A stretch of DNA of 64,000 bases, from the NCBI GenBank assembly GCA_008632985.1, contig QPGO01000104.1, forward strand, positions 62,001-126,000, given 5' to 3'. This document shows positions 2,613 through 49,700 of this stretch, one piece after another. The notes under the pieces are model-generated. The model saw only the letters and a list, made by a program, of their open reading frames with translations, was not told the origin of the DNA and did not search any database. Made by a program: the position numbers and the translations under genes. The DNA comes from Psammoneis japonica (Eukaryota). Position 1 is the first letter of the stretch. Each line of letters begins with the position of its first letter.

Positions 2613-3707
2613 ATGGATAGTAGCAAGAGACTTAAAATCGGTGAAAGTGACGGCCCTCCACGAAAGGAAGAAGAACAAGAGCCTGATGGTTTCAATGTCC
2701 TGTTTGAAAACGAGGATTTGCTGTTGCAAGTCTTGTTGAGAACCGACGCGGAGGATCATGGGCCGCTTCGTTGTTCCTGCAAGACCTTTCAACGTGTTCT
2801 CAATTCCAGCGTCTTTCGACAAGAACGCTTGAAGAAAGAGTGGGCACAAGTGCATGTCCCTGGGCAGAAAATGGTTCTGGACGGGAACTGTATGGATGAT
2901 GGGTTTCCCGTGATGCATCACGAGGCCAGTATTTTTGTCGACGGAAAAGAGGCTGGATCAGCCAAGCTGGTCTACGTTAATCGGCGTGTTAAGGATGTCC
3001 TTCATGTTCCATTTTTGAATTATGTGGAAGACTGGTTCGAAGACGGAGACGATGATCTGCATTATGCGGCGAACCTGTTCTTTACCGATAGGGCTCGTCC
3101 CAAGTTGAATTCTCTTCGAAAGGCGACAAAGGGGAAAGATCACACCAAGAAAAAACTCTTGTTTATTAAAAGTTTGGATCTATCGGAAGAGTATCGTCGT
3201 CATACCTGGGTGGGAGCATGTGCGCTTGGATGCATGCGTGAGTTTGAATTTGGACGAGGTGACTTGATTATTGATTGGGGCATTGCCATGTACAGAGGTG
3301 ATCGTCGCCGACAGCTTGTCTCCGAGGACGACTTTCGTGATCAGGAACGGTGGGAGGCTCTTATGGAAAATGAAGGAGCTTTGTCTGAGGAGGAAGAAAA
3401 GGAAATGGCGGATTTGGGAGCCAAGCTCGAGGCTCTTGACGTGGCAGACTTGAGGCCGTTTTTACGCGCTGGCTTTGAGCAGCCGGACGAAGTGATTGCT
3501 CGCAGGAACCATTACTTTGTCTTTTGTACGATCGACAAGTTAGTGTGTGAGCCTTCCAGAATGATGACTGGTCAAGAGGCAGAGGCGCTTCCAATCCAGC
3601 CTCTAGTGCCTGGTCCAGAGCCCGAAGAGGATTGTGCCGACTTTAGGGAGGACGACGAGGCAAGCCACGACGAGAGCGATTGGTCGGACGCTTGCTTTGA
3701 TTATTAA
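2613..3707 (+). CDS. Hypothetical protein with N-terminal F-box-like motif
   Basis: 364-aa ORF. EDLLLQVLLRTDAEDHGPLRCSCKTFQRVL resembles the F-box pattern. Acidic C-terminus. Confidence 0.7.
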   Translation: MDSSKRLKIGESDGPPRKEEEQEPDGFNVLFENEDLLLQVLLRTDAEDHGPLRCSCKTFQRVLNSSVFRQERLKKEWAQVHVPGQKMVLDGNCMDDGFPVMHHEASIFVDGKEAGSAKLVYVNRRVKDVLHVPFLNYVEDWFEDGDDDLHYAANLFFTDRARPKLNSLRKATKGKDHTKKKLLFIKSLDLSEEYRRHTWVGACALGCMREFEFGRGDLIIDWGIAMYRGDRRRQLVSEDDFRDQERWEALMENEGALSEEEEKEMADLGAKLEALDVADLRPFLRAGFEQPDEVIARRNHYFVFCTIDKLVCEPSRMMTGQEAEALPIQPLVPGPEPEEDCADFREDDEASHDESDWSDACFDY

Positions 3708-4609
3708 AGAGAAACTGCTTCGGATGATTTCACTAAGGCTTTGCAGAGATGGGAGCATGTTCAGAATCCAGTGGATTTTGAAGACTTCTCCAAGGAAGAC
3801 CTGAACGAAATGGAATTGAATAGCACGGATGGCGAATCGCGTTTTCGGAAACGAGTAATGGTAATAGAATCACGTTCTTCATCACGGATGCCGCGGGCGA
3901 GACAGCCCTTGGACAGTATCGCTACAACTCGAGGGACACTATTTTTACCCGGTGAATCATGAATCGTTTCCTATCGAGGTTACGCCAACCGGAGCTGATG
4001 GCCTCAACTTTGCATCCTTATGTCTTGATACCTCGGGCTTTGATAATTCGTCTTCTAGTGATGATCCGGACAAGGATGTTTTATTGGGAAGACTGCAGCG
4101 ATTGCTGATGTAATCCCCTCTGTGGCATGAAGAGAGATTTTGAATTCTTTGAAGGTGTCATTGAAGATCTCTACCAATGCTACTTATCCGGACGAGGATG
4201 ATTCGGGCGGGTAAGCACTTCGACTTTCGGTGATATCTCTACGGTAGGATGAAAACGAAGTGGATGATTATGCGATCTCAAACTCGTGACTGACATTCCC
4301 ACCACGACTGAACCGATTGAACCACGACTGAAAATATTCAATGTTCGGCGACAGCAGGTTGGCGATGAGAAGCGGCAACTTCACACGAACAATCGAAGGC
4401 TATTTCATGTGTGCACATACGATGGTGACACCTTTCCTCATACTTAAAAAGTGTCACTCCCATTACGTGGTCGGAGTCCCGGTACGATAGAAATGCGAAC
4501 CCATCACTACGGAGTTGCGTAAAGAACATGCCGCAAAGAACAAAAACGCGAGTCTCACAAAAACAACAATAGCAACAAACGACCTAGCAACAAGAACAAC
4601 AACGACACC

Positions 4610-5530
4610 ATGCGCTTCAACATCTTAATGCTCATGCTTTTGCCCCTCGTGACGGTCGCCGACGATGAGGTGGTTCTAGGTGAAGGTACAATTTTCACGG
4701 GAGGCGAGTCTAACCACACTCATAGCGGTGCATGCCATTTGAAACTCCAGCGTGATGGCAACCTGATTGTCCGACGCCGTGGTCCCTTTTGGACCGTCCC
4801 AAACGACCCTGATCCCAGGGAGGACTCTATCAGTTGGACCAGTGGTCATCACCAAGTAGGAAGTTATCACGCGAGGCTTCAGAACGATGGAAACCTTCAA
4901 GTCATTTTCCACGGATCGGATGCTGAAGAAGTTGTCTTTTCAACTCATGTGTATCCCTTTCCTGAGAATGAGCCGGCTCCGAGTCATGATTTACTCTTTA
5001 CCGACAACTGCATTCTGAAAATTCAGAGAAAGTTTCCTGACGGGAGTAAGGACATCATTTGGCGAAACATCCACGGCTGGCTTGATAACTTTTCAGCCGA
5101 CGAGTATCCCGGACTGGACAATGTAATGCAAAAGGGCGAGTTTTTTTCGTATCCCAATCAAAACCACGGAACGGTATGTGGCACGGGAGCCAACTTTTGT
5201 ATGGAGGTACCCTTTTCGCTTCGACTCCAACAGGATTGCAACCTGGTGAGCTTTGTCGGACACGACTTTGGGGATGCGGCTGCCGTGGTGTGGTCGGCGG
5301 GTGTGGCGCGGCCCCAGTTTGACAATTGCTATCTCTTGGTGGACTCGAACGATGTAGCGCTTTATGAAGGTGATTTTGATCCAACGCTTCCGCCCAATTC
5401 GAACCGCCCCGGAAAGTATTGGAGTGTGCCACAGAGTTTTTTTGATGACGCTGGCGGGTTCCAACCGGGTACTTCTACGTACCAGATTCTCATCAACAAT
5501 GCAGGCCAGATGTATTTGGATTGGGATTAG
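4610..5530 (+). CDS. Secreted bulb-type (B-type/GNA) lectin-domain protein
   Basis: Signal peptide plus QxDxNL motifs LKLQRDGNLIV, ARLQNDGNLQV and LRLQQDCNLV. Close paralog at 7387. Confidence 0.85.
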   Translation: MRFNILMLMLLPLVTVADDEVVLGEGTIFTGGESNHTHSGACHLKLQRDGNLIVRRRGPFWTVPNDPDPREDSISWTSGHHQVGSYHARLQNDGNLQVIFHGSDAEEVVFSTHVYPFPENEPAPSHDLLFTDNCILKIQRKFPDGSKDIIWRNIHGWLDNFSADEYPGLDNVMQKGEFFSYPNQNHGTVCGTGANFCMEVPFSLRLQQDCNLVSFVGHDFGDAAAVVWSAGVARPQFDNCYLLVDSNDVALYEGDFDPTLPPNSNRPGKYWSVPQSFFDDAGGFQPGTSTYQILINNAGQMYLDWD

Positions 5531-7386
5531 GGAGGAATCAGAATGATGAGAGTAATTGTTCGGTTGACATTACGCGCTTGTATTATACGAAACAAAGTTG
5601 AATTGGGATATTGAGCCAAGAAGACGGAGAGTGAGCGACGCGGAGGATGTCAGCAATGCGAATGCGCCAGGAGGATGAGATATTGTGATACTTTCACCTT
5701 CAGCATTCCTCTACGTCTATGAATGATAGTAGCGTGATAAAAATAGGATGATGATTAGAAACAAAAGCATTCACGAGTAGCGATAAACCTTACGTACCTT
5801 CCTCGCCCTTCATCGTGTTGTGCGCCAAACGCCAAACAACCACACCGCGATGCGGCTCGCTGCTGCGTGGCGCGGACAGACAACATATCATATCTTTTTG
5901 TGATTGCGTTGCTTGCTTTCGCATCAGTTGTCAACGCTCACGTCTCACGTCTCACGTCACGATGGCTTTGACAACCTCAGCTCTGACAGCCCGATGCATG
6001 CCACCATATTGTACTCTATGCAATAGTCTTTCGATCAGTACGACTGTGGCAAGTTGGTGGCATTTGAACTTCAATCTGCACTATTGGGCTTGCGCAGAAG
6101 GGGCACGGGGCGCACTCTGAACTACAAATAATGTAATTGTACGAATAGCTTTCGACGTTGAAAACGGGAGCCATTTCTCCGAAGGATGGGAGAAGCAAAT
6201 GCAAGGTACTCAAAGGACGGATAGCATGCCCACAATCGAGTACGAGCCAAACCGGGTGCTTGAAAGGAGATGGCTTGCAAGTTTGAAGCTACAGAAATAA
6301 GCCTTTTTGCAAAGAACAAAAATCATTTTTGTTCATGTCGAGGAAGCGATATCTTGTGTGGATTGGGAGGGATGCAAATCTCACATGGCAACAAGGACAG
6401 CCCTGAAGTTTGTTTTCACTGCGTCTTTCTTTTCAGAGGACAAGGATGATTCGCGTTAGCAGATCTCACCTTTGTTTACCCCGGTGAATAGTTTTGCCTT
6501 TTTTCCGACGAATCCTAGAGGCTTAGTGAAGACTATTTGGCTCACCTACTTCGTACTCCTGCAACTCTCTCTAGAGAGAGGGAAGTTGAAAATTCTGGAA
6601 GGACGAGTGGATAGCGGAGCTGAGAAGGCCTTATTCAAATACACTTACAAAGGCGAGCTGCTGCAACTGAAGATGATGCGTGGCATGGAGCGGCAATAGG
6701 AGTAGGTCCCGACAAGTTGTCAAAACTTTACGAGAAGAGAATCGACGCCCGAGTGTCACTTTATTTCGCTTTCAGACAGGAACATTATCTTTTGATGTTC
6801 TTCGCCCAGCTGCGATGGTCCAACTTGAGCTACAGTATCTTATTGACATCAACGTGGTCTTGATTCCTTGACATTCAGATAGAGAGATGAATTGTAGTCA
6901 CAAGCAGCCGCCGCACGGACGAAACCATTGAGAAAGGCACCAAATGTCAAGTTTCTCAAGCACGACCGGGGCCGTCAACCGAGATGACCTCTCATCTAGC
7001 TCTCGCAGAGAGTAGCTAGGGAGTAGACGACGAAGAATTGGAATAGCGAATGTGGATTATCGTATGACGGAACAGTGGTGAATGAGACACCCGCAATGCT
7101 GTAAGACTGCGAAGATCATCTTCGCCCACGACTGCGGCTCCATGCGACCCACGACCCGCAACAATAACACCCACGATTGATTTTATAAAATCGGAAGCAT
7201 GATGACGAGTGGTCGTGCACAATAGCATTTCTCTCACCTTCATAGACTCAAAAATTGGTATTCGACAATCGCTCTATGAGTGGTTGTCAACATGGTGCCA
7301 CAGTACCGTCACGATCTTATGCGAACCTTCCATACTGTCTCATTGAATCAACAACAAAAAAACAACGAAACAAAGACAAGGACAAT

Positions 7387-28875: not shown

Positions 28876-29759
28876 CAAGTAACCAAATCCAGTTCGAAAA
28901 ACTGGAATGGCATTCGGGGTGAGATTCAATGGTTTCGATGGACCAGTAAAATTCGTTTGAGCACTTTAGCTGGAGTACATCGGCATGCCATGACATTTAC
29001 AGTATGATGCAGATTGAAGATACGCATAAGCAAAATCCTTAAACCTTTTAGACGCTTCTCATTATAACAGACCGCAGAGTAGCATGAACCTTGCTTATTC
29101 ACCTTCATTATTCTTCTTAAGGCATGTTATCAACATCTCTCCAGAACCGCACTCTTGGGATCATTGCAACTCGATTGTCGAACGTAAGCGTCCTCGTCTC
29201 GTTGAAAGAACTGTCAGTCGCACCCGCAAACGGGAACACTTTTCTGAACTTTTTCCATGCAAACGTCACATATCCCAAGTTGGTAGCAGCGTTCCACAAA
29301 GTCTGCATCACCTCGTTGGGGAGGCTTCCCGTCATTCTCATCGATACTGTAACCATTTGGTAATGCGCGGAACACTTATTCCGCAATGGCGCAAGCAAAA
29401 TCGTAGACGAATATAGTCATAGATTGACGCGGGTGAGCCTCAAACATATAATCCATGAAGTCCTTTCGAAACCTCGCTTGGTCACTTGGCTGATTTTCCC
29501 GCCACTGACAAATCATACCTTATTTTACTTTATCCCCTTCTTCGCCAAGAGAATTCAGCTCCTTGAACCGGCAACAGCAATCGCCTACTTTGCACTTTTT
29601 GGCTTGTGCCATGACAGCGTAAAGCTTCCATTGCCAGTTGCGCGCATGTACCAGAAACGCATTAGCTCCAGGAATGCACATCAGCACTCGCAAGTGGTAG
29701 TCACACAACATGTGACCAAAAAACAGGGTTTGGGGCCAATTTCTGGTGCAAAAAATATG

Positions 29760-32235
29760 CAGAAAATTCACGCAGAATGTCTTGTTCATCGTGCAACAAT
29801 GGGCCACGACCTCAAGGAGTCGATTTCAGTCATGATTATCGACACTTTGTGCACTCACTTTCTGATGACTGGCATGACGATGTCCACCTTTTTGCAAAAC
29901 TCCATGTCATTGGAAAATGTTCGCTGTGGTCCCACCACAGCGAAGTGCTGATCAAACAATGGAAAATGGAGGTTTGAAGTGTTCATGCACAGAATCGTGT
30001 TGCTTGTGCAAAAGTCATCATGCAGAGCATCAACGGTTTCAGGGGAAAATGATTCCTTCTTGAGGCAGCCCAAACCCTGATTTTTATGATTTTTTCTGGC
30101 TCATCCAGTTTTGACGGGGTCTGAGTCTGGAACAAGTCCTGCTGTGCATGTTTGGCTGTGTGGCAGCAGCCCCGCTTGGCTGGGCAAAAAAGCAAAGCTC
30201 ATGACTGACCAAATGAAGCAGTGCTGCCCATGTGTGTGCCGCCATTTGAGGGTGGTTGGTTGCTGCTTTTTTGGCTTAAATTTAGCCAAACAGATTGTGT
30301 GTTTGCATGTTTTTTCCTGAGTTTCACCCCGTGCTTGACTGCAGCAAAAACATCAAGCCACAAGTCTGGCTGTGTGGCGAATGTAGCCCATCTTCAAACT
30401 CTCATGTGTTTCATGTTCCTTGCGCACCAAAGATCTCACACACATGAAAAATTTGAGGATGGCAAGCTGCATTTTTGAGAAATGTTGATGATTGTCATCC
30501 TCATTGTGCTTCAATCATGGCGCGCAATGTTCTCGTTTTTGTGTTTGATTGGCGATCGGGTGTGAACAAGAACAAAAGAACAATTTTTGAAGCCAAGAGC
30601 AGACACTGGCATCCAAATGCCATGGTGATTTTGGGGTGAACACAGGGATGACCCCCCTTGATTGGGGCCAAAAGCCATCATTGTCAATGCATCGAGTTCT
30701 CAGGAAACACTTTTGCATTTGAAAAACATGGTTGGCACCGTCAAGTTGCCATCTCTCAGTCATTGGCATGGCAATTTTCTCACCCGCAGTGCAAGAAAAA
30801 AATCAAACCACTCATGGGGGTTCAATGCATGGAGTCTGGAACAGGCAAACTGTGGTGTGGCTTGGGGGGGGGGTGCAGAAATTCACGAGCGCAGTTTGTG
30901 TCACAGAGGGTCAAATGCCAAGTTTCACAAAAAAATGAGGCTTGCAATGAACAAGATGGCAGCAACATGTGAGACTGTTGAGAATCAAGCAAACCAATGA
31001 AATGAAACATGCATTGTGCCACACAGACGTCAATGTGTCGACTGACACACCATGCCATCATCATGGATGTTGCGTCATCTTTCACATTTTTGCCCATCAT
31101 CTGGCTCTTCAGGTCATTGAACCGTGAACCGTGGCAGGGGTTTGCATGGAAGCCCAGGAAAATGCAAAGCATCTGTGAAACATGAACACATCTGTGGTTG
31201 AACATTGTCAAACAGAATTTTTGCTGTGACAAGCTTGAAAACATCTGTCAAATGATGAAGTGCAAGAGCTGTCATTTTGCTTCTTTGAAATTTTCAATTG
31301 AGGAGAGTTTTCAAAATTGCTGCAAAGTGACTGCAAAGCGACTGGCTGCACAGAAACTTTGAAGTGTCTCAAAGAATCTGAAAGTTGTCTGTGCTTTGAA
31401 GACTTTGAAGAAAATTGATTGATGACCTCTGTGTTTTAAAACAAAAGCAATCTTCAACACAGTTGTTCATTCTTTGAAGAAACTTTAAAGGCTGCAGCAT
31501 GATGCAACACCAACTCAAAAACATCTGTCCCTGAATGTCTTCATTGCAAATGGTCAAAAACAGAACCTCACCAAGTTTCAAAAATGAGCATGTCACGGCC
31601 AAGCACAAAGCACAAATGCCACAAGTTTTGCTTGCATGGCACTTGCTGCAGGGCCCCATGCATGCCGGCACTGTGGTCATTGTTGCAATGGGCAAAGGAC
31701 TTGTCAAAGGGTCTGATCACTGCAATCTTGTCTGGGACCAGCTTTTTGGTGAGAACACCATGCTTGGTGGCTGTCATTGCATTGGGGTCATGTGCACCAA
31801 GCCGGCGCTGCGTCTGACTCCAAAAAGGCATGGGGTGCCATTGCTGTGCAAAAGTGAAAATCACAAGGAGCCACCCAGCACTCGTTCACTCTGCTCAGAG
31901 TCTGAGACAGACTCAGCTTCCGCGAACAATTTTGAGTCAGGCCTCCAAGACATCTTTTGGATCTTTGACAGCCAATTCTCAAAGAATGGGGTGAGTGCAC
32001 TGCATGGTGGCACAGTGTGACATTGCGTTGCGAAGCCCCCTGCTTCAAAGTGCACTTTGAAGACACTTTGAAGACACTTCGAAGTGTCTTCAACATTTAA
32101 AATCAAATGATGTCATCTTCATTCAATGGAAATTCTGCGCAGTGACTTCGAAGTGTCTTCAAAGCTTCCAAGACTTAAGGTGGTGCAAGACAAAAATTGT
32201 CGGGAATTTTTTCTGGTGTGATTTCTGCACTTTTC
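29760..32235. other. TpA-depleted island D
   Basis: About 8 TA in ~2.5 kb, mostly in TTAA/TTA context. TG/CA excess. Confidence 0.85.
32043..32093. repeat. Two adjacent perfect palindromes (20 bp at 32043-32062; 26 bp at 32068-32093) built from cttygaag units
   Basis: cttcaaagtgcactttgaag and ttgaagacacttcgaagtgtcttcaa. Related units at ~32145-32165 and ~31357-31410. Confidence 0.85.
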
Positions 32236-33160
32236 NNNNNNNNNNNNNNNNNNNNNNNNNNNNNNNNNNNNNNNNNNNNNNNNNNNNNNNNNNNNNNNNN
32301 NNNNNNNNNNNNNNNNNNNNNNNNNNNNNNNNNNNNNNNNNNNNNNNNNNNNNNNNNNNNNNNNNNNNNNNNNNNNNNNNNNNNNNNNNNNNNNNNNNNN
32401 NNNNNNNNNNNNNNNNNNNNNNNNNNNNNNNNNNNNNNNNNNNNNNNNNNNNNCGTAGGTGGGAATCCGTGTGACATTGGGCCCGTAGACTTCTACGTGC
32501 GAGCTCCGTAGTAAAATTATACGGTAATTAAAATGTCAATGATCGCCAACAGAAAATGAGGCAATTTTGCGAACGCACAAACTCGCACATGATTGAAGTA
32601 CATCATTTTTTACTTAGCCAGTTACATTCTTCAGACATTGAAGAATGTAACTGGCGCATTATTGTTTCTATAAATTTGTTATATAAAACGTCTGGGGCTT
32701 CGCAAAACAGCGAGTCTGGACAATTTTTTTTAAATATCACACGTAGAAATCTACGTACGAAACATACGACGGATGATAAAAATTATTGTTGTCACACGTC
32801 AGTACTACGAGCTCCCACCTAGGGCTGGAACGCGTCGAAAGGTGCAGTTTCTTTCGCTCGACAGGTGGCGCCAAGACATTGGTGAAAGTGTCTGCATGCT
32901 TGAATTCTCAAGTGTTTTTGTCTTGAAAGTGCCTTTCATGGCCCTTCCGAGATGACATTGAGGAACAGGCGACAAATGAGCGATCTCCGAAACGGAATTT
33001 CCGTTGAGCGACACACTTGCAATCACGCGCTTGCCGACCCACGTGGTTCGCCCACAAAACACAATGCATTTTGTATGACGACGGATTCCTGATTACCGTC
33101 ATTTTCAATGAAAATGCGCGCAGAAACGATTTTCACAATTTTCGTCTCGTACCACCTTAA
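32175..33160. mobile_element. Non-autonomous TIR DNA transposon flanked by TTAA, Kolobok-like; spans assembly gap
   Basis: TTAA(32175-78)+ggtggtgcaagacaaaaattgt at the left end and acaattttcgtctcgtaccacc+TTAA(33157-60) at the right. The 22-bp TIRs have 3 mismatches. TTAA target with RR...YY termini fits Kolobok. Confidence 0.7.
32236..32453. other. Assembly gap (218 N)
   Basis: Run of N. Confidence 1.
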
Positions 33161-33392
33161 ATAAAACTGTTGCGAGCTCCTCAACAATGTAAATCGTGTT
33201 ACGTCACAACAGGAATGTGGAATCTTTCCGCATCTTCGCAGTTTCCCGGGATTCCCGTTCTCCTTTGGTCGTGGATTCTTTGGTCGTGGATTTTTTCGCT
33301 GGCAGCATGCACCACTTGCTCTATTTGCACCAGTTGAAAGTCGCTCTCATTATCTGCTCCTCGGTGTGTCCCTTGAGGTGCTGTTGTCGACA

Positions 33393-36370
33393 ATGATGAA
33401 TCGTTCCAATGAGACAAATGACGACATCGACACTTGTGACAGACAAGGCGTTGATGCTAGCAACAACCTGACAGAAACCCATGATCACAAAAAGGAAACG
33501 AAAAGTTGGAAGAGTTTCGAGAATCAAGGTGCGACGACGACGAGCATGTTTCTCCTCCCGCTCGCAAGAAGAAAAAGAAGAAGCACCGCCGAGCTGGTCA
33601 TCGTCGTCAACATCGACAAAAGGAAGAAGATCGGTTGATTCACGGACATCAGCAACAAGAACGACTCCGTACACGAGATACCGGCAGGGTAGCCGCAAAC
33701 GCTGCATCAAGTACGGTGCTTACGAGTACTTCTGCTGTTGCTGTTGGAGCTTTTGCCGTTGGTCAAGAAGGGCAACAAGTTCAACGACGAGCAAGGAACT
33801 TCACTGACAACAGTAATGTGACGCAACTCTTGTCAGAACTCGAAACTTCCGGTTCTCATCATTCTCTATCTGACACACATCCACCTACGCCTGTTCCTGG
33901 AAGTGCCAACATAAGTCCTGTGCTTATCGAAGCAGAACTGGCGATCCAAGTGAAGACATTCTGATCATGCGTGACCAAGTTGCCCGTCTTGCGGACGAGA
34001 ACAATCGTCTTGAAGACGAAAACATTCGTCTTCGACAGGCAGAAGTTGCTCAAGTTGTGGTGACGACTCCTGATGTTGAAAATGAAAACGAAGCGACGCG
34101 TTTGGAAGATGATGATGATGACGGGTTACTACACAGAAAGCATCGCCAAAAACGTTTCATACTTCTGGGATCAGTAGTATTGGTCAGCATTGCTGCAATT
34201 ATTGGAGGTGTTGTCGGAGTCACGTCAGGCAGTGATAGTATCAACCCTCATACACTCACCATGGAGACCAAAGAAGTTACCGGATTGGTCATGAACTTGG
34301 TTGGTGTAGGCACTGAACTTGATGGGGAACACTCGATTTATGGGTGGCAACAACCAAGGATTTTATTGAGGAATATTACAAGACCAATCGTCGTCGTGGC
34401 CTCTTCGCATCCCGGCGGAACTTACAAGCGTCAAATATATTCAACGTTGAGACGACACTGGAGGTTGCCAGTAACAATGTGGTTCGGGTGGTGATAACGG
34501 CTTAGGGCCTTCTCTACAAGTCAGTTATGACCAAGCCTTCACTTATGCTTTTGAGAGCAGCGGAAAGGTCATTTCTGTAGAAGCGTTGGCAACAGAGCCA
34601 TTCAAGATACCCGAAAGGAGAATGGCTTACGTTGATGACCTAAAGATAGCCGGCGTGAATGCCGGTAGCGACATATTCAACATGTTGGTTGAAGTCAGCT
34701 CCGTAGCAACCACTACTGAAGATCCAACGCCGTCACCCACAAAAGGTGATGTATTAAATGGCACAGAGTCACCGACACTACATCCATCGGTGCCACCATC
34801 CAGTTCAGCCCCAACGACCAACACAATATCATCAGTTCCCACGGGAAGTCCAACTTCAAAAATCCCCACACCTCCAACGAATCCTGACCAAGAGATGACC
34901 CATAGTCCATCGTTGCTTCCATCGAACGACCCAACTCTCATTTCAACCATTCCGCAGACTCTAGATCCAACGACCAGTCCCACTACTCTGCCGATCCAGC
35001 GTCCGACGATACGTAGCACCGGGAATCCAACGACCAGTCCCACTACTCCGCCAACGACCAGTCCCACTACTCCGCCAACGACCAGTCCCACTACTCCGCC
35101 GACTCATCGCCCGACAACACGTAGCACCGGGAATCCAACGACCAGTCCTACTACTCCGCCGACTCAGCGTCCGACGACACGCAGTCCAACGATATTACCT
35201 ACGACAAATCCAACTTCTTGTCCCACTGGGAATCCAACGCCCACTCCTCCTCCGACTGTGGCTCCAACAACAAATCCTGTTGTTTTTTCGCGAAATAGCC
35301 AATGGCTGCCAGTAGGACAGGCAGTGCATGGCAAAAATGAAGGTGATGATTTTGGCGGATCGGTCTCCCTTTCAAATGATGGAAACATCATGGCTGTCGG
35401 ACCGCCGCTTGAATTCTTTGGCGTCGGCTATGTAGCTGTGTTTCGATTCAATCCATCAACCAAGGAGTGGATAGCCATGGGTCAAGAGTTAGTGGGCAAT
35501 CGTGGTGGATTTGGTACATCACTTTCCTTGAATGGTGACGGCACGGTCCTAGCCGTCGGGGAACCAGGCGACGGTTATGTATATGTATTCAATTATGATT
35601 CAGACACGGACAGTTGGCTCCTACGAGGCAATGTTTTGGTTCTTGGAGAATATGATGTTAGACATGTCATCTTATCAAAGCAGGGAGACATCCTTGCCAC
35701 TGGAGGAAATGGTTTTGAACCCATTCACTTCTTTCGGTACGACCGCGACGCAAATTACTGGTATCTACACGGAGAGCCACTCCATGCTGGAGCCGCTGAT
35801 GAGGGTGGGTATTCCATGTCTTTAAGTGGCTCTGGGTCGACTTTTGTAATTGGAAATTATTTGAGTTTTTACGACGGGGTATCGGGTTCTGTGTTGGTTC
35901 ATCAATACAACTCTACTTCGTCGACATGGGATTTTATTGGCTCCCCGAACGGCAGTTTTCAAGATGGGCGTGAGTTTGGTTGTTCCGTTTCATTGGATGA
36001 CAGTGGTTTGGTCATGGCTGTTGGGGCGTGTGGATCTGGATTTCTCCAATCAGCTCCGGGAAGTGTTTATGCTTTTGCGTATGACACCGAAAAATCAGCT
36101 TGGAGTCCACTTGGGCAAATTCTTACGAGTTCCGAACGTTCTGCGTATTTTGGTTGGGAGGTGTCGTTAAGTGGAGATGGAAGTGTGATGGCTGTGGGGG
36201 ATTGGGATCAAGTTTCAATGTATTTTTACGATTCCTCAGAATGGGTTCAATTGGGCCAGAGTTTACCGGGACGCTCCGTTTCCTTGTCTGTCAATGGAAC
36301 CGTCGTTGCAATTGGTAACGCAGGCGAGGTACATGCTTTCTCTTTGCAACAAATGATCGCGATACCATAA
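33393..36370 (+). CDS. Type II membrane cell-surface protein: coiled coil, TM helix, Pro/Thr mucin-like stalk, C-terminal beta-propeller (FG-GAP-like repeats); frameshifts in 5' half
   Basis: TM segment FILLGSVVLVSIAAIIGGVVGV and PTTSPTTP repeats. Repeated FG.SVSLS.DG..MAVG units in ORF 34586-36370. Confidence 0.75.
34967..35190 (+). repeat. Coding minisatellite, 24-bp ccaacgaccagtcccactactccg units (PTTSPTTP) within a longer-period repeat
   Basis: Directly visible tandem units. Confidence 0.9.
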
Positions 36371-41331: not shown

Positions 41332-41919
41332 CCAAAACGAGGGTCACTGCCACCGCGCGTGCAGTGACCCCCCAAAACGAGGGTCACTGCAGCTGCGTTA
41401 AATTCTACGTGTTTGTACCAGGAAAATGTACCTCCAACCTATCCGGCAGGCGTGAGTAATATTTTACTACAAATTGCAAGACAATTGCGCGATTCACGTG
41501 CCCGAAGGTGGAATATCGTTGCCCGAAGCAACATTCTCCCTTCGCGCAGATGTCAATTCTACGTATGATGTGGTATCAAAATTTTCATTTTGGTCGTCTA
41601 AATCGTCCCAGTCATTTCATCAAATGACCTTGTGGTACTCTCCTACGTGATCTACGCAAATCGGAGCTTCGGGCTGGCTGGTACATTTTCTACAGGCTCT
41701 ACGTGCGCGAAGCTCGAATTTCAACAATCACCCTTCGGGCACGTGAATCGCGCAATTGTCTTGCAATTCGTAGTATGTACGAGAAAGAGTTCGTTGGGGC
41801 AGGCGAACAACATCACTCTACGATGCGACTGGTACAAAATCTACGTAAATGCACAGACACGCTCTGGAGCATGTCTGTGCAAATTCGAGCTCGTAAATAA
41901 TAAGCAGGGATATCGCATA

Positions 41920-44900
41920 CAACATCATGACCACGATCGGGCACCGAACGCACAAACGACAAGCGATGGAGTGTGGGCATCTCCAGCAGTTTTGCATGAG
42001 TCACAAGTGGTGAGGTGCAATTCCTCCACAGGAACATTGCCAGAGCAACAAAGGGTGTGTGCCATCTCTTTGTCCAAAGTGGGCTGAAAGAAGTGTTGTC
42101 TCAGGCTGTTTTCCGCATGTGGCTCCAATTTTCTCACATCCTCGCTGTCAAAGCCAGCAAGTCATGAACAACAATCGCGCTTTGCACCTGCTTGAGTGTG
42201 GCAAGATTTTGCAAATGGGCAGCACTGCTGTGGTGGTTGTGCTGTTCCCACCTGTGGTGCACTGAGGAGAAGGTCATGTGTCTCTCAACACCAGAGTGCC
42301 AGCACAACAAGATGCTCCTCATGCAGGAAAAGAAGGGGTGGATGATGCAAACAATGTGGGCTCTCTGTGGTTCAAAGGTTGCGTGAAAATGCATCTTCCA
42401 TGATGAAGCTGCACAGCTTGAGAGGCAACTCAGCAACACCCCACCTGCCAGGCATTTTGAAAATTTGTCATTTGTCATTTCCGCTCAACAGCAGCTTGTG
42501 CAGCAGCAAGAGCTCTTTTTTTTTCTGGGCGATGCACCGCACAACGTGGAGGAAAACAAATGCAGCTTGCCCCCCATGCTTGCATCAACAAAAGCAGTGG
42601 CAGTGCTGAGCCCTGTTTGATGGAAGTCAATTTTGTCCATTTGTCAACAGGGAGATTGTGGCAAGTGTTTGGAGTCTCTCAACAAGGAGGTGGTGTTCAA
42701 GATCTGTGCCAGAGACCACAAGCCAAAGGCTCTTGTTTCCTGAAAAGAGCTGTGGGGGAGGATTCATCAAAACACATCACATTGTCCTGTGCATTGCAAG
42801 CACAAGGCACTCTGCTGCTTGTGAGGGGCTTCTCAATGATGCTTTCAACATGATCATCCACAGTTTCTGTCATTTTGTTCTGGAGAGCATTGGCAAACAC
42901 AAGCAAAACAACCAGGTGAACATTTGAACGACATTTTGTTGTCTCTTTGTTTTGGGTGCAAGGGACTGCAATTTTCAAACAGAAGAGCTTGGTGTCAGTT
43001 CATTGCTCCACAGATTGCACCAGAGCACAGCTGGGCCAAGTCACCCAGCTTGACAGAGCAAGAATCACATGCAGCCACAACTCCAGCAGATGTGTTCCAG
43101 CCCCCCAGGCAGGACCTCACAGTGCTGCTGAGGTGCAACATTTGAGCACAGGGGATTGACTTGGTGCAGAAACTGTGCAGATTTCTGTGCAAACAATTGC
43201 CCAATTTTGGTTGAATTGGGGGAATGAATTGCAAACTCTCAAAACTGCATCTCAACAAAAAATGGCTCCATGCCACACTTCAAAGCTTGCATGATGGCCC
43301 AAAGCATTGCAAGTCTTCATTTTTAGCTGACAACACTGCACTGAAGTTTGAGAAGAGAGGCAGAGGAGAAATCATCGTCACACACAAAAACAGAAGCAAC
43401 CACAGAGCAGCCATGCAGCGCGCCTGCTCTGGCCTCAAAGCTGCCACAATTGACAAGACATTTTGTGCCTCTCATGCCACAAAAGGTGACAAGGTTGCAA
43501 ACAAAATGTTTGATGCATTTCAAGCCAAAAATCAGGACAAGCCATTTAACAAATTGGAACCCAAGGGCACAACACATTTTAGCAAGCACTTGTCAGATGA
43601 GCCCATCATCCATCAGCATGGCAATCCTGACAAGGAGCTGATGGGGGTTGATGCCAAGCAGCAAATTCTTGGCACAGAAGCAAAAAAATGAAGTTTCCCA
43701 AGCACCCTGACTGGGAAGATGAGGGCAAGTGGTGCACAAGCCTCTCCGCAGCAGCGACATGGCAAAGGCTGCTGGCAAAGCCAGCCTGCTAGCATGGAGC
43801 ACATGGACAAAAAAACTTTCCCTCTGGCCCAATGTGTTTTTTCAGAACATGTTTGAGCAAAGAGCAAAGCACCATTCTTGTGTCAGATGGAAGTGCAATG
43901 TTGAGAATTGAAAGTGAGGCATTTGCATGTGACACAGAGATGTTGTTTCTTGCTCTCTGGCTCTGCAGCACAGTTGTCTTTTGTGATGAACAACGGCACT
44001 CTTTAGCAGCATTGCCAGATTTTAATGAGTGCCATGGCTCCTTTTAATGATGCAACCAATGGCTTTGTGATTTGTTCTACAAGAATTTGGAAGCTGCGTG
44101 GTGTGAGTCCAAGACAGTGGATTTGTGTGGACTTCTTTTTCCACCAAACAAAACATCTTGTCTCTTTCATTTGTGCTGTGCTTTTGCAGACAATGTGGAA
44201 AAGGAACTCCACAAACACACATTTCCATGGAGAATCTGGTGTGAAAGCTCAAGGCAAGTTGTTTTCATTGAACAGGACATCTTCAATGCTTTTGCACAAG
44301 TTGAGCAGTGAGATGACATTTTTTCTCAGGAAAATTGCCAGAGCAACACAACCAATGTACACCATCTTTATCCAGAGTGAAATTGTTGTTCATCAAGAAT
44401 CTTTTGTCTGGATGTTGTGGCAGCCTTTCTTAAAAGAAATGTTGTCTCAGGCTCTTCCTGCTCCATGACATTTTGGACACAGCTCCAACTTTCTTGTTGC
44501 TGTCAAAACTGGTGATTCACAAACAACAGGTGCCATGGGCTGCCCTCCACTTGAATGCAGTGAGCTTTTGTAAATGGATTTTGTGGTGCTGCTGCTCCTG
44601 TGGTGCATTGAGGATGAGGTTGACACAACATGTCGATGCAACATGAACTTCCACCACATGCAGTGAAAAGGAAGTGAGTGCCACAAACAGCGTGAATGTC
44701 AAGATTGAAAGGGAATGACAAGGCATCCTTGATGAAGATGCTGGGGTTAAGAAGTGACTTTTAAACACCCCACCTGTGAGGCATTTTGAATTTGTCAATG
44801 ACAGCTTGCTCAATCACAAGAGCCCCTTTTGCTTCTTTTTTTCCCAGATGAAAAACCCAGCAGATGCGGACAAGAAAAAATGCAGCTCATTCCTGCTTGC

Positions 44901-44990
44901 ATCAACAAGAACAATGGAAGCACTGAGCCCTGTCAAACAGCAGTTTGTTTCAGTTGTTGTTCAACAGGATTGTCATGAGGGTGTTTGGAA
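41920..44990. other. TpA-depleted island E containing two diverged copies of a ~1-kb unit (~42000-42953 and ~44300-45350)
   Basis: No TA seen from ~41915 to ~43320. Collinear shared blocks include attgccagagcaaca, tgttgtctcaggct, aacaccccacctg and tgcttgcatcaacaa. Confidence 0.85.
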
Positions 44991-45348
44991 TCTCGAGGAG
45001 GTGTTCAGGATCTGCCGGAGACTACAAGCTCAAGGTTGTTGCCTGAAAGAGGAGCCACGTGGAGGACGCAGCGAAGTGTGCCATCTTACAGCACCAATCA
45101 CGTGCATTACAAGCATTCGAATATTTTTGAAAATCAGGACATGGTGGCGGGTTCAATCGAATTTACTTATTCAGGCGACTTGTGAAGGGCTTCTCAACAT
45201 TCCACATGAACTATTGGGCGTTATTTTACTCTCTACTAGAGAGAGGGCGTTACTTGCAAACACAAGAAGTTCTTGAACAAGGAATCTCGGATGCAGCTCT
45301 CGACAAAACTAGGTAAACATTTGAGTAATATCTCGCTATCTCTTTGTT

Positions 45349-46398
45349 TTAAGCGCTCTGTAGATTTCGTCGAAGCGTGAACCGAGTCAACCGGCTGCCA
45401 TGGCCTTTCCCCCCCCTTGCTCCATTCTTACACAACTCTGGCTTATTGGTCAACATCCAAAATAAAAAGTCGGCATTGTGGCTTGACCGAGCAAATGCAT
45501 GCGACCACAACCCCAACGGAACAAGTCTCGGCGATCGTACAAGGTGTCGTCCTGCCTTGTTCATGCTGTAGTAGCAGTTCATTAAGACTTGTGTGGTATC
45601 ATCATCAGTCCTTCCAGACAATAATGAAAATGACGTCTCTCCGATTTCTTGTACAGACGTAATTAATTTGGGACAATTGTCGACATTTAGCACTTGCAGC
45701 TTTGACAATAGTAATATCGCTTTTGGTATCTCAACAAGACGAGAGCAAGACGATAGCTTCAAAACTTCCAGGTTATCCAGGTCGCCGATTGTACTTGATA
45801 ACGTTCGAATATTGCTGCAACCAGTTAGGTCTATTTCAGATAGCTCCGATAGCTGACCAATCGCATTGGGGAGGCCTGACAAGAGCTCACAAAAGTTCAC
45901 CTTTAGCCGATTCAGACGACGACACGATCCAAACTCCACAGGCAGTTCCTTTAGACTTTCACAGCGACTCAGTGTCAGCTCTCTTAAATTTTGGAGATTG
46001 CCAATCTCAGACGGCAATTCGTTCAATGCCCCACAGCCAACAATGGACAGGCGGCGCAAATTCTCACCAAGAACCTGGAATGTCTCTTGAGGCAGCTCTT
46101 GCAACCGTGGACAGTCCACGAATTGCACCTCTTGCAATTGCTCGAGCTGCACGATTTCAGGAGAACAACTCTGAAAATTGCTGCAATTCGATATACAAAG
46201 CGTTTCCAAATGGCGCAACAAGACAATTTCAGGAGGCAACTCTATCAAACCACGACAGTTCTTTAGAGTGAGTTTTGTGCAGTTTGCCAAGCCAGTTTTG
46301 CGTGTGTGCAACGTCGCATCAACATGACGATGCAATCGAATGGGCTGCAAGCCCATGGCCTGAGCAAGAGCAAGAATAAAGCGTTGAGAGCGATCCAT
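45349..46398 (-). CDS. Leucine-rich repeat protein (LxxLxLxxCxxLxxLP repeats)
   Basis: 349-aa ORF with ~8 LRRs of plant NLR-like type. C-terminal N.AGR.L...PLGLW..AF motif. Confidence 0.85.
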   Translation of the reverse strand: MDRSQRFILALAQAMGLQPIRLHRHVDATLHTRKTGLANCTKLTLKNCRGLIELPPEIVLLRHLETLCISNCSNFQSCSPEIVQLEQLQEVQFVDCPRLQELPQETFQVLGENLRRLSIVGCGALNELPSEIGNLQNLRELTLSRCESLKELPVEFGSCRRLNRLKVNFCELLSGLPNAIGQLSELSEIDLTGCSNIRTLSSTIGDLDNLEVLKLSSCSRLVEIPKAILLLSKLQVLNVDNCPKLITSVQEIGETSFSLLSGRTDDDTTQVLMNCYYSMNKAGRHLVRSPRLVPLGLWSHAFARSSHNADFLFWMLTNKPELCKNGARGGKGHGSRLTRFTLRRNLQSA

Positions 46399-46749
46399 AC
46401 TGCACGGGGCACTTATTTTCCGTTTGTGGTTTGCAGCATTTCGGTCATGATCGATCTCTTATCAGCACAACTGTTGATGGGCTGAATAAACAGCGCAGCA
46501 GCCATCAGCCGCAGCGGGACTGTAATGTGGAGATGGTCGATTTCATTCGTGCGTTCAAGTCGTGTTTAAAATTTGAAAAATTTCGGTTCAATTTCGACGT
46601 TTGCGTAAAAAACATACGAAATTGACCAATCCAAACAATCATCACGTCTCACAGTGATGGAGGTCAGTGAGAGAACGGAGGTCACTGCGCGCATTGTATT
46701 TAGATCTTCCATCTTATTGTCCAAGGCAGTCTTGCACTCCTTAATCTGT

Positions 46750-49700
46750 GCAATGGCCATGTCTGGTTGTGTCCAGTGTGCATTCAAGAGGGCTTCATGG
46801 GTTTGAGCTCTTTGACTTCCCAATGGTTTTGTCCCCTTGAGAGAACAAGACCCGCAGGCTTGCACCACACATGACTGAAAGCAACAACGAACATCTTTGA
46901 CATCCTTTTTTGGGCAACTGCACTGAGCCACAGTGCAAGCTGAGCAGCAAACTCCAGCCCATTTTGTCGGCTCCAGAAAAGGTTTTTGACATGCAGGTTT
47001 TCATTCACAAGTGCCTCACTTGCCAGCTGAGCCAAATGAGTGCCTTTTGGCACCGTTTCCTGACAATCTTCATTTGGCATGGGGGGCAGCATCAACTGAC
47101 ACACCACCAGTGTCCTTCCAATCTTGATTCGCTGTTTTGGAGGATGCATGCAGAGTCTTGCCACTTGAATCTTCATTGAAGTGCTTGCCGGCAGATGGCA
47201 TGGCTGCTTTTAAAGATGTGCCGGCGAGCAATGGCAGCCGCAATGTTTTGTCAACAAGTTTGGTCTTTGTTCTGCAGCTGCACGTCGCCAAGTGGCAAAC
47301 ATTTGAATCTTGTAAAATTTGGAAAGGCCAACATGTGCACATGCATTTTCAAATTCTCTTTAGACTGCGGAATTTTCTGAGGGTTTTGTCAACTCGTCTC
47401 CACTCCGACCTCGTTTTGGAGCAATGGCAAAGAGAGGAGTTCAAGCCACATCACATGGTCAGGAATGGCATGCCCACACATTTTGTTTCTGTTTGTGACA
47501 ATGCAAACCTGCTGAGTCTTTTGGGGAGTTGTTTTCACCGGCATTCCGAAGGTCACCGCATCTCCCATGATTTGGGTTTGGCACTTTCATGCTGTGAGTT
47601 CCTTTGCTCGTCTGTTGTGGGTTGCTCCCCTCGGGCTCACAATCTGCTTTGTAAAAAGATTGTGAAGAGGCATTTCCCCTGGCACACCTGTTGAGCAAAA
47701 GCAACTGGCCTCTTTTTCCAATGCCAGCCCAGCTCACAACTTGATCATTGTGAGTCATGCATCTGCTGGTGAGCTTGACCACAGCAAGACTCACATTTGC
47801 CCAGTGCCTTTTCTGTCCAGGCATTGCACTGGACTTTCAGTGGCTCCAACTGTCTCTTTCCCAGCTGGCAAGTTCTAATGCAGACCACCATGGCCAAAAC
47901 TGGCAATTGTTGAAAAACACTCAGCACACATTCAAGGCAATTTGAGCTTGTCACTCACTGTCAATGTGCAGCAATGGCTTGTTCAATGACAAGAGCCCTT
48001 TTCAGTCTTTTTGTTGCATGAGGAACAAGTGATTGTTGATCTGAAAAGAGCAAGTGCAGCTCTTGTCTGCAGGGTTGTGACAAAGATGCTTGGAGTTTCA
48101 AAAAGACATTTGGAATCTGCTGAATGTCAACAAGCTCAAGAGGCAGTTGTGCCTGAAACAGGATCTGTGCCAAGGACGTGGCAATGCATGCCACCTTGTC
48201 TCATGCTTTGCAAGGTGCTCCACACCATTTGTGAAAATTGGCACATGTGCGGTGGCAGGTGAAATCAATTTGAGGCACTTTGGGCAACCACTTGGTTTTA
48301 CAACAAAAGGCTTCTCGATGTCATCCTCAGAGAGTGCTGACAAAGACAAAAGCAGTTGCTGAACAAGCAAGGGCTCTTGGTCACCACTCAACAAAACCAG
48401 GCAAAACAACTGCACAACACATTGTCATCTCTTTGTTTTGTGAAAGCAGGGGCCTGTGTGGTTTTCAAGTGGGCTGCCTCTTGTGCAGGAGAGTGTGAGC
48501 TGAGTCAACCAGCTGCCACAGTGTTTCTGCCCATTGCTCCACCCCCTTGTGTGACTTTGGTTTGTTGGTCAGCATGAGACCACAAACCCAACAAGAAAAC
48601 AAGTCTTGGCAATCACACAAAGCAGCATTGTCCAGCCTTGTCCATGCTGCAGCAGCAACTCATCAGAGCTTCTTCCAGACAACAGCAAAAATGATGCAGT
48701 CTTTTTGATTGCTTGCACACAGTGGGTGTGATCAACTTGGAGAAGTTGCTGGCACATTTGAGAGCAAGAACGAGGTGGCAGGTTCAAAACTTCCTGGTCA
48801 TTCTCCAGGTTGCTGGTTGTTTGACTTTCTAAAGCTGCAATTTTGTGGAGTGAACAAGTTGCCCCACACATCTCAATGAAAAACTGTCTTTCGCTCAAGT
48901 TCAGCATGTCAAAAAAGCTGGTCCAAGCAAAGAGGCCCTGTTTTCCTTAGTGTTCCAAAGATCTCTTCTGCAATGACAGTGAGAACAAATCATGGCACAG
49001 CAGATGTGGTCCATTTGATTGGCTCTGCCATTTTTGGGATCTAAGATGACAATCTGAAAAATGTTCTTGTGGGTCCATTGAGGAGTGGGAGCAATTTGTG
49101 GCTGCAAATGTTTGAGTGGCAGGGGTTGGGGACAACAGTGCCCCTGGCCCCACAAAACCACCATGAAAACAATCTACAGAACTTTGCAACTCACTTGTCT
49201 TGAAAACCTCAATCATTTGCACAAGTTCACTGGCCCGGTTTTGTGATGCAAAATGCACAATTTCCAGCCCAATCCATTTGTCGCATCATCAGGAAAAATC
49301 TCTCAAATCTGCCTCACTGTGAGAAGAGTCTCCTGAAGAGCTGGCTGGCACCAAACCTGGGTCACCTTGTTGTGCCACCTCATTGTGAGCACTCATGAAC
49401 TCACGGAGTGCAGCCCTCCTGTCACCTTCAACCATGTCGTCAGCACGTGTCAAGCCAATGCCCCGATGGCCTCAAAATCCCTTTGGCACCTGTTGAACTT
49501 CTTTGACATTGGTGTCCCCAGATGAGCAACTCAAGCACTCTGCAAGGGTGCCTTGTTGCTCTGAATGACGAAGTTCCTGAAGGAAACGCCCCCCACACCC
49601 ATGTGAACTCCGCTGTTTCGACAAACATTCTTTGGCCCAACCAGGGTTTCAATGTGCTCTTTGAGAACACTTTCATCTGCTGGGGGCAATTTTCTCAGTG

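Follow-up and report, generated by a model that had tools for sequence, protein, structure and literature searches.

A hypermutation process that turns A:T into G:C pairs at TpA steps only has been described in the alga Bigelowiella natans, where it strikes integrated viral DNA at ~6e-7 and where ADAT2 is proposed as the enzyme; the accessible parts of that preprint give the de novo rate as raised ~1000-fold, with activity in only some lines (Mettrop et al., 10.64898/2026.01.13.699255). Here we describe a TpA mutation process in the diatom Psammoneis japonica (genome assembly of 91.4 Mb in 597 contigs), as recorded in a stretch of 64,000 nt of contig QPGO01000104.1, hereafter called the window, and in particular in a TTAA-flanked, Kolobok-type transposable element at window positions 32175-33160, one end of which was mutated in place while the other was spared. 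The best named matches of a gene in the window come from Seminavis robusta and Fistulifera solaris, in keeping with a diatom. We regard it as nearly certain that the parts of this account hold jointly, i.e. that there is one element, that the change took place in situ and in the direction TA->TG/CA, that it is specific for TpA with a preference for TAC and TAT, and that it is linked to position. The process is real, position-dependent and little known: a literature search, which had few subscription journals, found a report for one unrelated alga only and none of TpA hypermutation in diatoms. New here are the proof of in-situ change from sequences of the same age, a boundary that lies within a single element, the rule on TAC/TAT and the recurrence in other organisms.

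The two cases share TpA transitions on both strands in foreign or silent regions, and adenine deamination is proposed for both; according to the accessible text, the TpA-poor coding sequences of B. natans are enriched for transposon domains. The P. japonica case differs in that the host is a diatom, that the targets are DNA transposons and MITEs (miniature inverted-repeat transposable elements), that the change is near saturation and resolved within 600-bp elements, and that it is accompanied by CpG decay and ordered TAC/TAT > TAG/TAA, whereas in B. natans the de novo rate was measured. The words 'diatom', 'CpG', 'context' and 'polymerase' do not occur in the main text of the preprint as far as accessible. 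Two of the features that mark the B. natans process are found here, namely the restriction to TpA transitions and the confinement to island DNA, which is presumably silent.

Fungal repeat-induced point mutation (RIP) likewise degrades repeats in place by means of dinucleotide-specific transitions. However, RIP acts C->T at CpA and thereby gains TpA, whereas the process in P. japonica destroys TpA, and a pure homology trigger is a poor fit for copies of one family that are hit or spared by location. In the accessible text on diatom transposable elements (TEs), these are methylated at CG by DNMT5a (PMC9998398); the CpG decay of such DNMT5-methylated transposons would cover the two CG->CA changes described below, but not the faster TA->TG/CA change.

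The element and its two ends

The arms of the element (32175-32200 and 33135-33160; 26 nt each, TTAA included) are 88% complementary and mismatch at three sites, all changed in the left arm: one TA->TG and two CG->CA. A first-pass annotation of the window had described these mismatches in the terminal inverted repeats (TIRs) correctly, together with the surviving TTAA at both ends and the gap between them. The left TTAA target-site duplication (TSD; 32175-32178) is followed by the mutated left TIR (32179-32200, + strand) and by the start of the element body (32201-32235, + strand), both TA sites of which now read TG. Beyond the gap of 218 N (32236-32453) lies a younger nested element, MITE-A (32454-32836, + strand), which is a 396-bp TIR element with a 4-bp TSD and has 31 of 31 TA intact. 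In the right body of the Kolobok-type copy (32837-33073, + strand) there is no TA left, 0 of 10 family TA sites being retained and six of these now reading TG or CA, while CpG is mostly retained. There follow a spared subterminal stretch that forms the edge of the mutated zone (33074-33134, + strand), the unmutated right TIR (33135-33156, - strand) and the right TTAA (33157-33160). In the last ~90 bp TA is kept at 33074, 33094, 33150 and 33158; among the aligned family copies, no other has the TA at 33094. The survival of TTAA is expected because this is the most resistant TA context, whereas that of GTAC, the most sensitive context, in the right TIR is not.

The family to which the element belongs is ~610 bp long, TTAA-flanked and non-autonomous; positions 32837-33170 used as a query gave 24 matches. 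At loci L032-L034 and L037-L043 (L034 and L037 being duplicates) both window pieces align to one locus at the family spacing. The left piece covers family positions 1-61 (of which ~27-61 form the body start) and the right piece ~288-610, so that family positions 62-291 (230 bp) and the first 13 bp of MITE-A, i.e. ~243 bp, are expected where the assembly has 218 N. Because the pieces match the same loci at the right spacing and the gap size fits, both ends come from one copy, in which MITE-A is a later insertion, and mis-scaffolding of unrelated ends is ruled out. The three mismatches are no family trait either: the least-mutated copy, L038 (31 TA in 610 bp), reads TACGAGACG at both ends, and the same TIR TA has been resolved independently to TG or CA in other copies, which rules out family-wide asymmetric TIRs as their cause. 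The main subfamily is truly asymmetric in the five bases at its ends, which read CGTAG on the left and GGTGG on the right, an asymmetry distinct from that of the window copy.

An X1 contig aligned over 31684-32235 differs from the assembly in five letters, which all fall within 31900-32018 and so outside the left TIR, and extends 106 letters into the gap; X1 is possibly the sample behind the assembly, so that this agreement is not independent. At 31118-9 and 31987-8 X1 reads CA where the assembly reads TG, as if two alleles had resolved one site in opposite ways. The X2 run, which has GT..AG joints and does not cover 29985-33304, was not used as evidence.

Direction, position and context of the TpA change

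The window contains blocks with sharp borders in which the observed/expected ratio (o/e) is 0.0-0.1 for TpA and 0.1-0.4 for CpG, and in which TpG and CpA are raised. At the 31 TA sites of L038, 11 other copies (341 cells) read CA 119 times, TG 117 times, TA 42 times and CG twice (30 cells uncovered, 31 other), i.e. A:T is changed to G:C on both strands, and the reverse is rare, TA standing in 3 of 451 cells at TG sites. When L038 was held out, 48 columns had both TG and CA among eight island copies, and at these L038 reads TA in 24, CG in 19 and CA or TG in 5. The same change separates TSD pairs, which read TTAA/TCAA in L039 and TTGA/TTAA in L040. At the protein level, in an alignment that took in 91 of 102 transposase homologues, seven conserved tyrosine columns contain 24 His and 11 Cys, spread over 14 proteins; these residues are the coding trace of TA->CA/TG. 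A CG ancestor at the TA sites was rejected, as true CpG is mostly intact in the same copies; in heavily hit MITE-A copies, CG stands in 2 of the 620 cells at TA sites, and real CpG is ~86% intact. The direction of RIP was rejected as well, with C>T at CA in 2 of 967 cases and TpA lost, not gained. Judged from these alignments, the change evidently runs from TA to TG/CA.

TIR pairs and TSD pairs are internal controls of the same age and as such prove that the change occurred in situ. Its dependence on position, which the annotation had suggested, is borne out by an end-by-end table of 30 family ends (minus two of the duplicate L034 and one false internal match in L045) and by a mirror-image copy. 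Where the outer 200 bp contain 5 TA or more, the TIR TA is retained at 5 of 5 ends; where they contain at most 3, it is retained at 0 of 22. The threshold (5 TA per 200 bp) is post hoc, and the right flank of the window copy lies just on it. The TA-poor ends read TG (12), CA (7), CG (2) or TT (1) at this site, and copies inside islands have lost the TIR TA at both ends. The mirror image is L042, in which the left side has kept TA at 8 of 10 sites and the right side at 1 of 19 (Fisher p = 9e-5). Divergence at other sites is 15% in L044 and 26% in L045, yet these copies have 30 and 38 TA in TA-normal flanks, and L037 and L038 differ at 2 of 474 other sites but hold 7 and 31 TA. In the window as a whole, islands have 65 TA in 15,742 bases versus 1436 in the 35,904 bases outside.

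The island to the left of the element (29750-32174; poor in both TpA and CpG, TA o/e 0.02-0.09), in which the last three TA before the element all lie within TTAA, seems to end at the gap because the TA-rich young MITE-A masks the erased zone. The proposal that the right end lies outside the island therefore holds for the TIR but not for the right half of the element, which is mutated up to ~33070. This zone ends ~90 bp before the right TTAA and ~320 bp before the start of a probable host gene (33394-36370, + strand), which was recognised from open reading frames (ORFs) and a Pfam FG-GAP repeat near its end, begins ~230 bp beyond the right TIR, and is the likely source of protection. Age clearly also matters, young MITE-A copies in islands, the window copy included, being unmutated. 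Furthermore, TA and CpG change are not tightly coupled, since 19 of 24 CpG sites are kept in the right body where TA is gone; together with the post hoc threshold this weighs against our interpretation.

The spectrum of changes was read from MITE-A, whose left-end pattern has at least 224 matches in the genome. A sample of 110 loci (the first 30 being the best BLAST matches, biased toward unmutated copies, and the rest 80 of 82 further listed places) gave 100 near-full copies. Their number of changed TA out of 31 is bimodal (51 copies with 0-5, 4 with 7-9 and 45 with 15-27), which two insertion waves would also produce. For the spectrum, the 57 copies with at most two unrelated differences were taken, 20 heavily and 37 lightly hit; the changes in MITE-A are near-pure transitions, with few transversions. 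In the heavy copies A>G is found at 457 of 1217 TA, 17 of 1531 AA, 16 of 965 CA and 4 of 828 GA, so that TpA has 457 of the 494 A>G changes, and non-TpA adenines 37 in 3324. Sorted by the 3' base, the TpA fraction is 0.585 for TAC, 0.475 for TAT, 0.222 for TAG and 0.145 for TAA, and C>T occurs at 72 of 1032 CG, at CA as given above, and never at CT or CC. The light copies follow the same context order (TA 56/2291). Neighbouring hits in the heavy copies lack strand coordination (0.479 versus 0.468 permuted, p = 0.27). The two internal TTAA of MITE-A went to TG/CA in 0 of 20 heavy copies, while its three GTAC sites are intact in 0, 2 and 0 of 20; likewise, TAA stands on one strand at 53 of 65 surviving TA in window islands versus 560 of 1436 outside. 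MITE-A copies (L001-L030, L055-L134), young or old, nearly all have TA-erased flanks and perfect 4-bp TSDs, and the insertion or retention of MITE-A is biased to islands.

A transposase alignment was also used to scan metagenomes, where 80 of 213 loci, named mostly as microbial-mat contigs and with 33-43% protein identity, were retained, and 8 of these 80 contain an 800-bp segment with a TA o/e of at most 0.15. In 14 pairs of near-identical loci, chosen among 18 alignments so that no locus occurs twice (unpolarised), 165 of 386 mismatches are TA versus TG/CA, though TA touches 8% of the 39,722 sites. By context, they affect TAC in 66 of 623 cases, TAT in 74 of 784, TAA in 17 of 812 and TAG in 8 of 772, i.e. 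the signal is milder than in P. japonica and the context is the same. A flanking gene of one such locus is a weak pointer to diatoms, Amphora coffeaeformis being the only named organism among its nine matches; the mat contigs with the same spectrum are probably from other diatoms.

Family affiliation and neighbouring features

The Kolobok superfamily is characterised by a TTAA TSD, 5'-RR...YY-3' termini and a transposase of the DDE type that has C/DxxH as well as zinc fingers (PMC9587614). Most family ends carry TTAA or one of the TG/CA products of it, and the termini are GG...CC, as this rule has it, in the window copy, L039, L040, L149 and L157; against the affiliation, L037, L038 and L042 start with CG on the left, contrary to the 5'-RR rule. 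The ~610-bp element has no transposase and no coding capacity. A search of the genome with PF20700, which Pfam labels 'Mutator-like', gave 12 matches, and at L147 there is an intact ORF of 885 aa, in which D, CCHC, DDD, DPSH, an HHCC finger and E were read by eye. Two longer elements, L149 (~3.2 kb, TTGA/TTGA) and L157 (~2.1 kb, TTGA/TCAA), have the first ~190 bp of the family, its TIR start and its right subterminal motif in common with it (scores against the family start of 52 and 55, with a maximum of 41 in 20 shuffles), and they contain transposase relics with 29-31% identity to the L147 ORF. These two are, to judge by their sequence, decayed relatives and no live partner. An intact autonomous element with the family TIRs, the partner that the annotation had envisaged, was found neither by TIR pattern (24 ends) nor among 11 PF20700 loci, 54 matches to the L157 end being left unexamined. 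The likeness to Kolobok hence consists of the TTAA TSD, the GG...CC termini of the window copy, the short TIRs and the relatives with relics of a putative Kolobok-type transposase, and the difference lies in the non-coding nature of the window family and the CG at the left end of its main subfamily. Through these related longer elements with shared ends, the Kolobok-like assignment is supported, and the window element is probably an ordinary Kolobok-type MITE.

At L147 (~3145-7189) the intact-looking Kolobok-type transposase lies in TA-normal DNA, whereas the DNA around its putative TTAA-flanked ends is TA-poor. Another family of the TTAA type, which has a PF20700 transposase and different TIRs (L151 1426-5729, L152 3606-6153, L153 3612-7905), shows Tyr/Cys/His swaps among its copies. 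In the window, both runs have single-base insertions at 33488, 33941, 34333-4 and 34485-6, which suggest that assembly frameshifts split one gene into several ORFs. A small TIR element at 41465-41775 (44-nt arms, 98% complementary) is absent from some X1 and X2 contigs (joint 41464-41774), a possible presence/absence polymorphism. Finally, diverged repeats (D6, D7, D9, D12, D14) at 42000-49000 surround a leucine-rich repeat gene and lie partly inside islands; host-like duplicates may be hit too.

Mechanism, alternatives and implications

The following course of events would account for the locus. A non-autonomous Kolobok-type element, its TIR cores matching, would have inserted at a TTAA. Later a host process acting on silent, repeat-rich DNA would have turned TpA A:T pairs into G:C, with one hit per TA on either strand and a slower CpG decay alongside. 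It would have spread from the left island to ~33070, short of the right-hand gene, so that only the right TIR stayed ancestral, and MITE-A would have come in afterwards and have escaped so far. Targeting may be by silent chromatin, i.e. by CG methylation such as DNMT5a lays down on diatom TEs, and the chemistry would most likely be the deamination of DNA adenine by a TadA/ADAT- or ADAR-fold enzyme, the product being read as G at replication. We would give this whole chain, its chemistry included, an even chance. Adenine deamination itself is our best guess, held with the same even balance, and is favoured because of the near-pure transitions, the strict 5' T and the independent hits.

Candidate enzymes are encoded in the genome: TadA-like and ADAT2-like proteins, as well as two genes of the ADAR/ADAT1 fold, of which one is ADAT1-like and lies on C40 (L283) and the second lies on C79 (L284:3672-5385, + strand). 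The C79 deaminase has zinc-binding motifs and no visible (double-stranded) RNA-binding domain, and a database look-up gave its family only; ADARs proper are, in the accessible text on their origin, a metazoan innovation (PMC4323055). No deaminase fused to a C5-methyltransferase was seen in the ORFs scanned from 7 of 8 loci, out of 27 matches. C5 DNA methyltransferase genes within TA-erased DNA (L186-L188, on C297 and C301) are perhaps carried by a mobile element. Several considerations speak against adenine deamination. TadA, ADAT2 and ADAT1 are housekeeping genes, so that their presence says little and they are candidates only, and the TA step is symmetric, so that sequence does not tell whether the A or the T was changed. 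The TAC/TAT preference is said to resemble that of TadA-derived editors, which look-ups did not confirm. For rice, TadA-derived editors are reported to have no obvious context preference (PMC11369719).

A change at T suits the symmetric step equally well (RTA is the reverse complement of TAY), and the same targeting could therefore work through a miscoding mark at TpA (5-hydroxymethyl- or 5-formyluracil, or methylated adenine), with hypermutation as the by-product of an epigenetic mark. Thymine oxidation occurs in some protists, and a mark on double-stranded DNA would fit independent hits without strand runs; nevertheless, transversions are few, and Tet_JBP (PF12851) had no match in the genome in a search that was silent on its controls too. 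We think this chemistry rather unlikely. A little less probable still is that a Y-family polymerase (eta or iota), filling gaps in an error-prone way when methylated repeats are repaired, places a G opposite the T of TA steps. Two eta-like genes (L165, L167) and an iota-like one (L164) are present in the genome, repair could be triggered by the CpG decay of the same blocks, and polymerase eta makes WA hotspots in somatic hypermutation, as the accessible text has it (PMC6423074). However, hits at AA are 34-fold rarer than at TA and not commoner than at CA, which is no WA pattern, the same-strand runs expected of patch repair are absent, transversions are rare, and TA loss is ahead of CpG loss.

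Position would not be causal if the spared copies were merely young, as the unmutated MITE-A copies in islands are and as L038 could be, or if the element seeded the process and its ends lagged. We consider this improbable, because the two ends of one copy are equally old and yet differ, in the window copy as well as, mirrored, in L042, and because island copies lose the TIR TA at both ends whereas the old copies L044 and L045 are spared. That the pattern is an artefact of mis-scaffolding or faulty assembly, or else the ordinary decay of a CG-rich ancestor by plain CpG deamination, is scarcely credible: there is a gap between the ends and there are assembly indel errors nearby, but family structure and gap size agree, the X1 contig matches the left TIR, and the scarcity of CG at TA sites next to well-kept CpG in heavy MITE-A copies contradicts such an ancestor.

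It is conceivable, and put forward tentatively, that diatoms carry a natural A-to-G genome editor that takes its guidance from silent chromatin, has a conserved preference for TAC/TAT and an edge sharp to ~100 bp, and would be the chemical mirror image of RIP and shared with Rhizaria, the C79 ADAR-fold gene or ADAT2 being catalytic. As diatoms have CRISPR tools and DNMT5 mutants, both enzyme and targeting are testable. If true, a natural deaminase of DNA adenine that acts on chromosomes would be notable, such activity being known mainly from engineered editors. For the elements themselves, a host process that changes most of their TpA to TG/CA means a loss of tyrosine codons and of the sites to which transposase binds; for the genome, TpA erasure skews dinucleotide statistics as well as the dating of TEs and raises the GC content of silent DNA, opposite to the usual trend.
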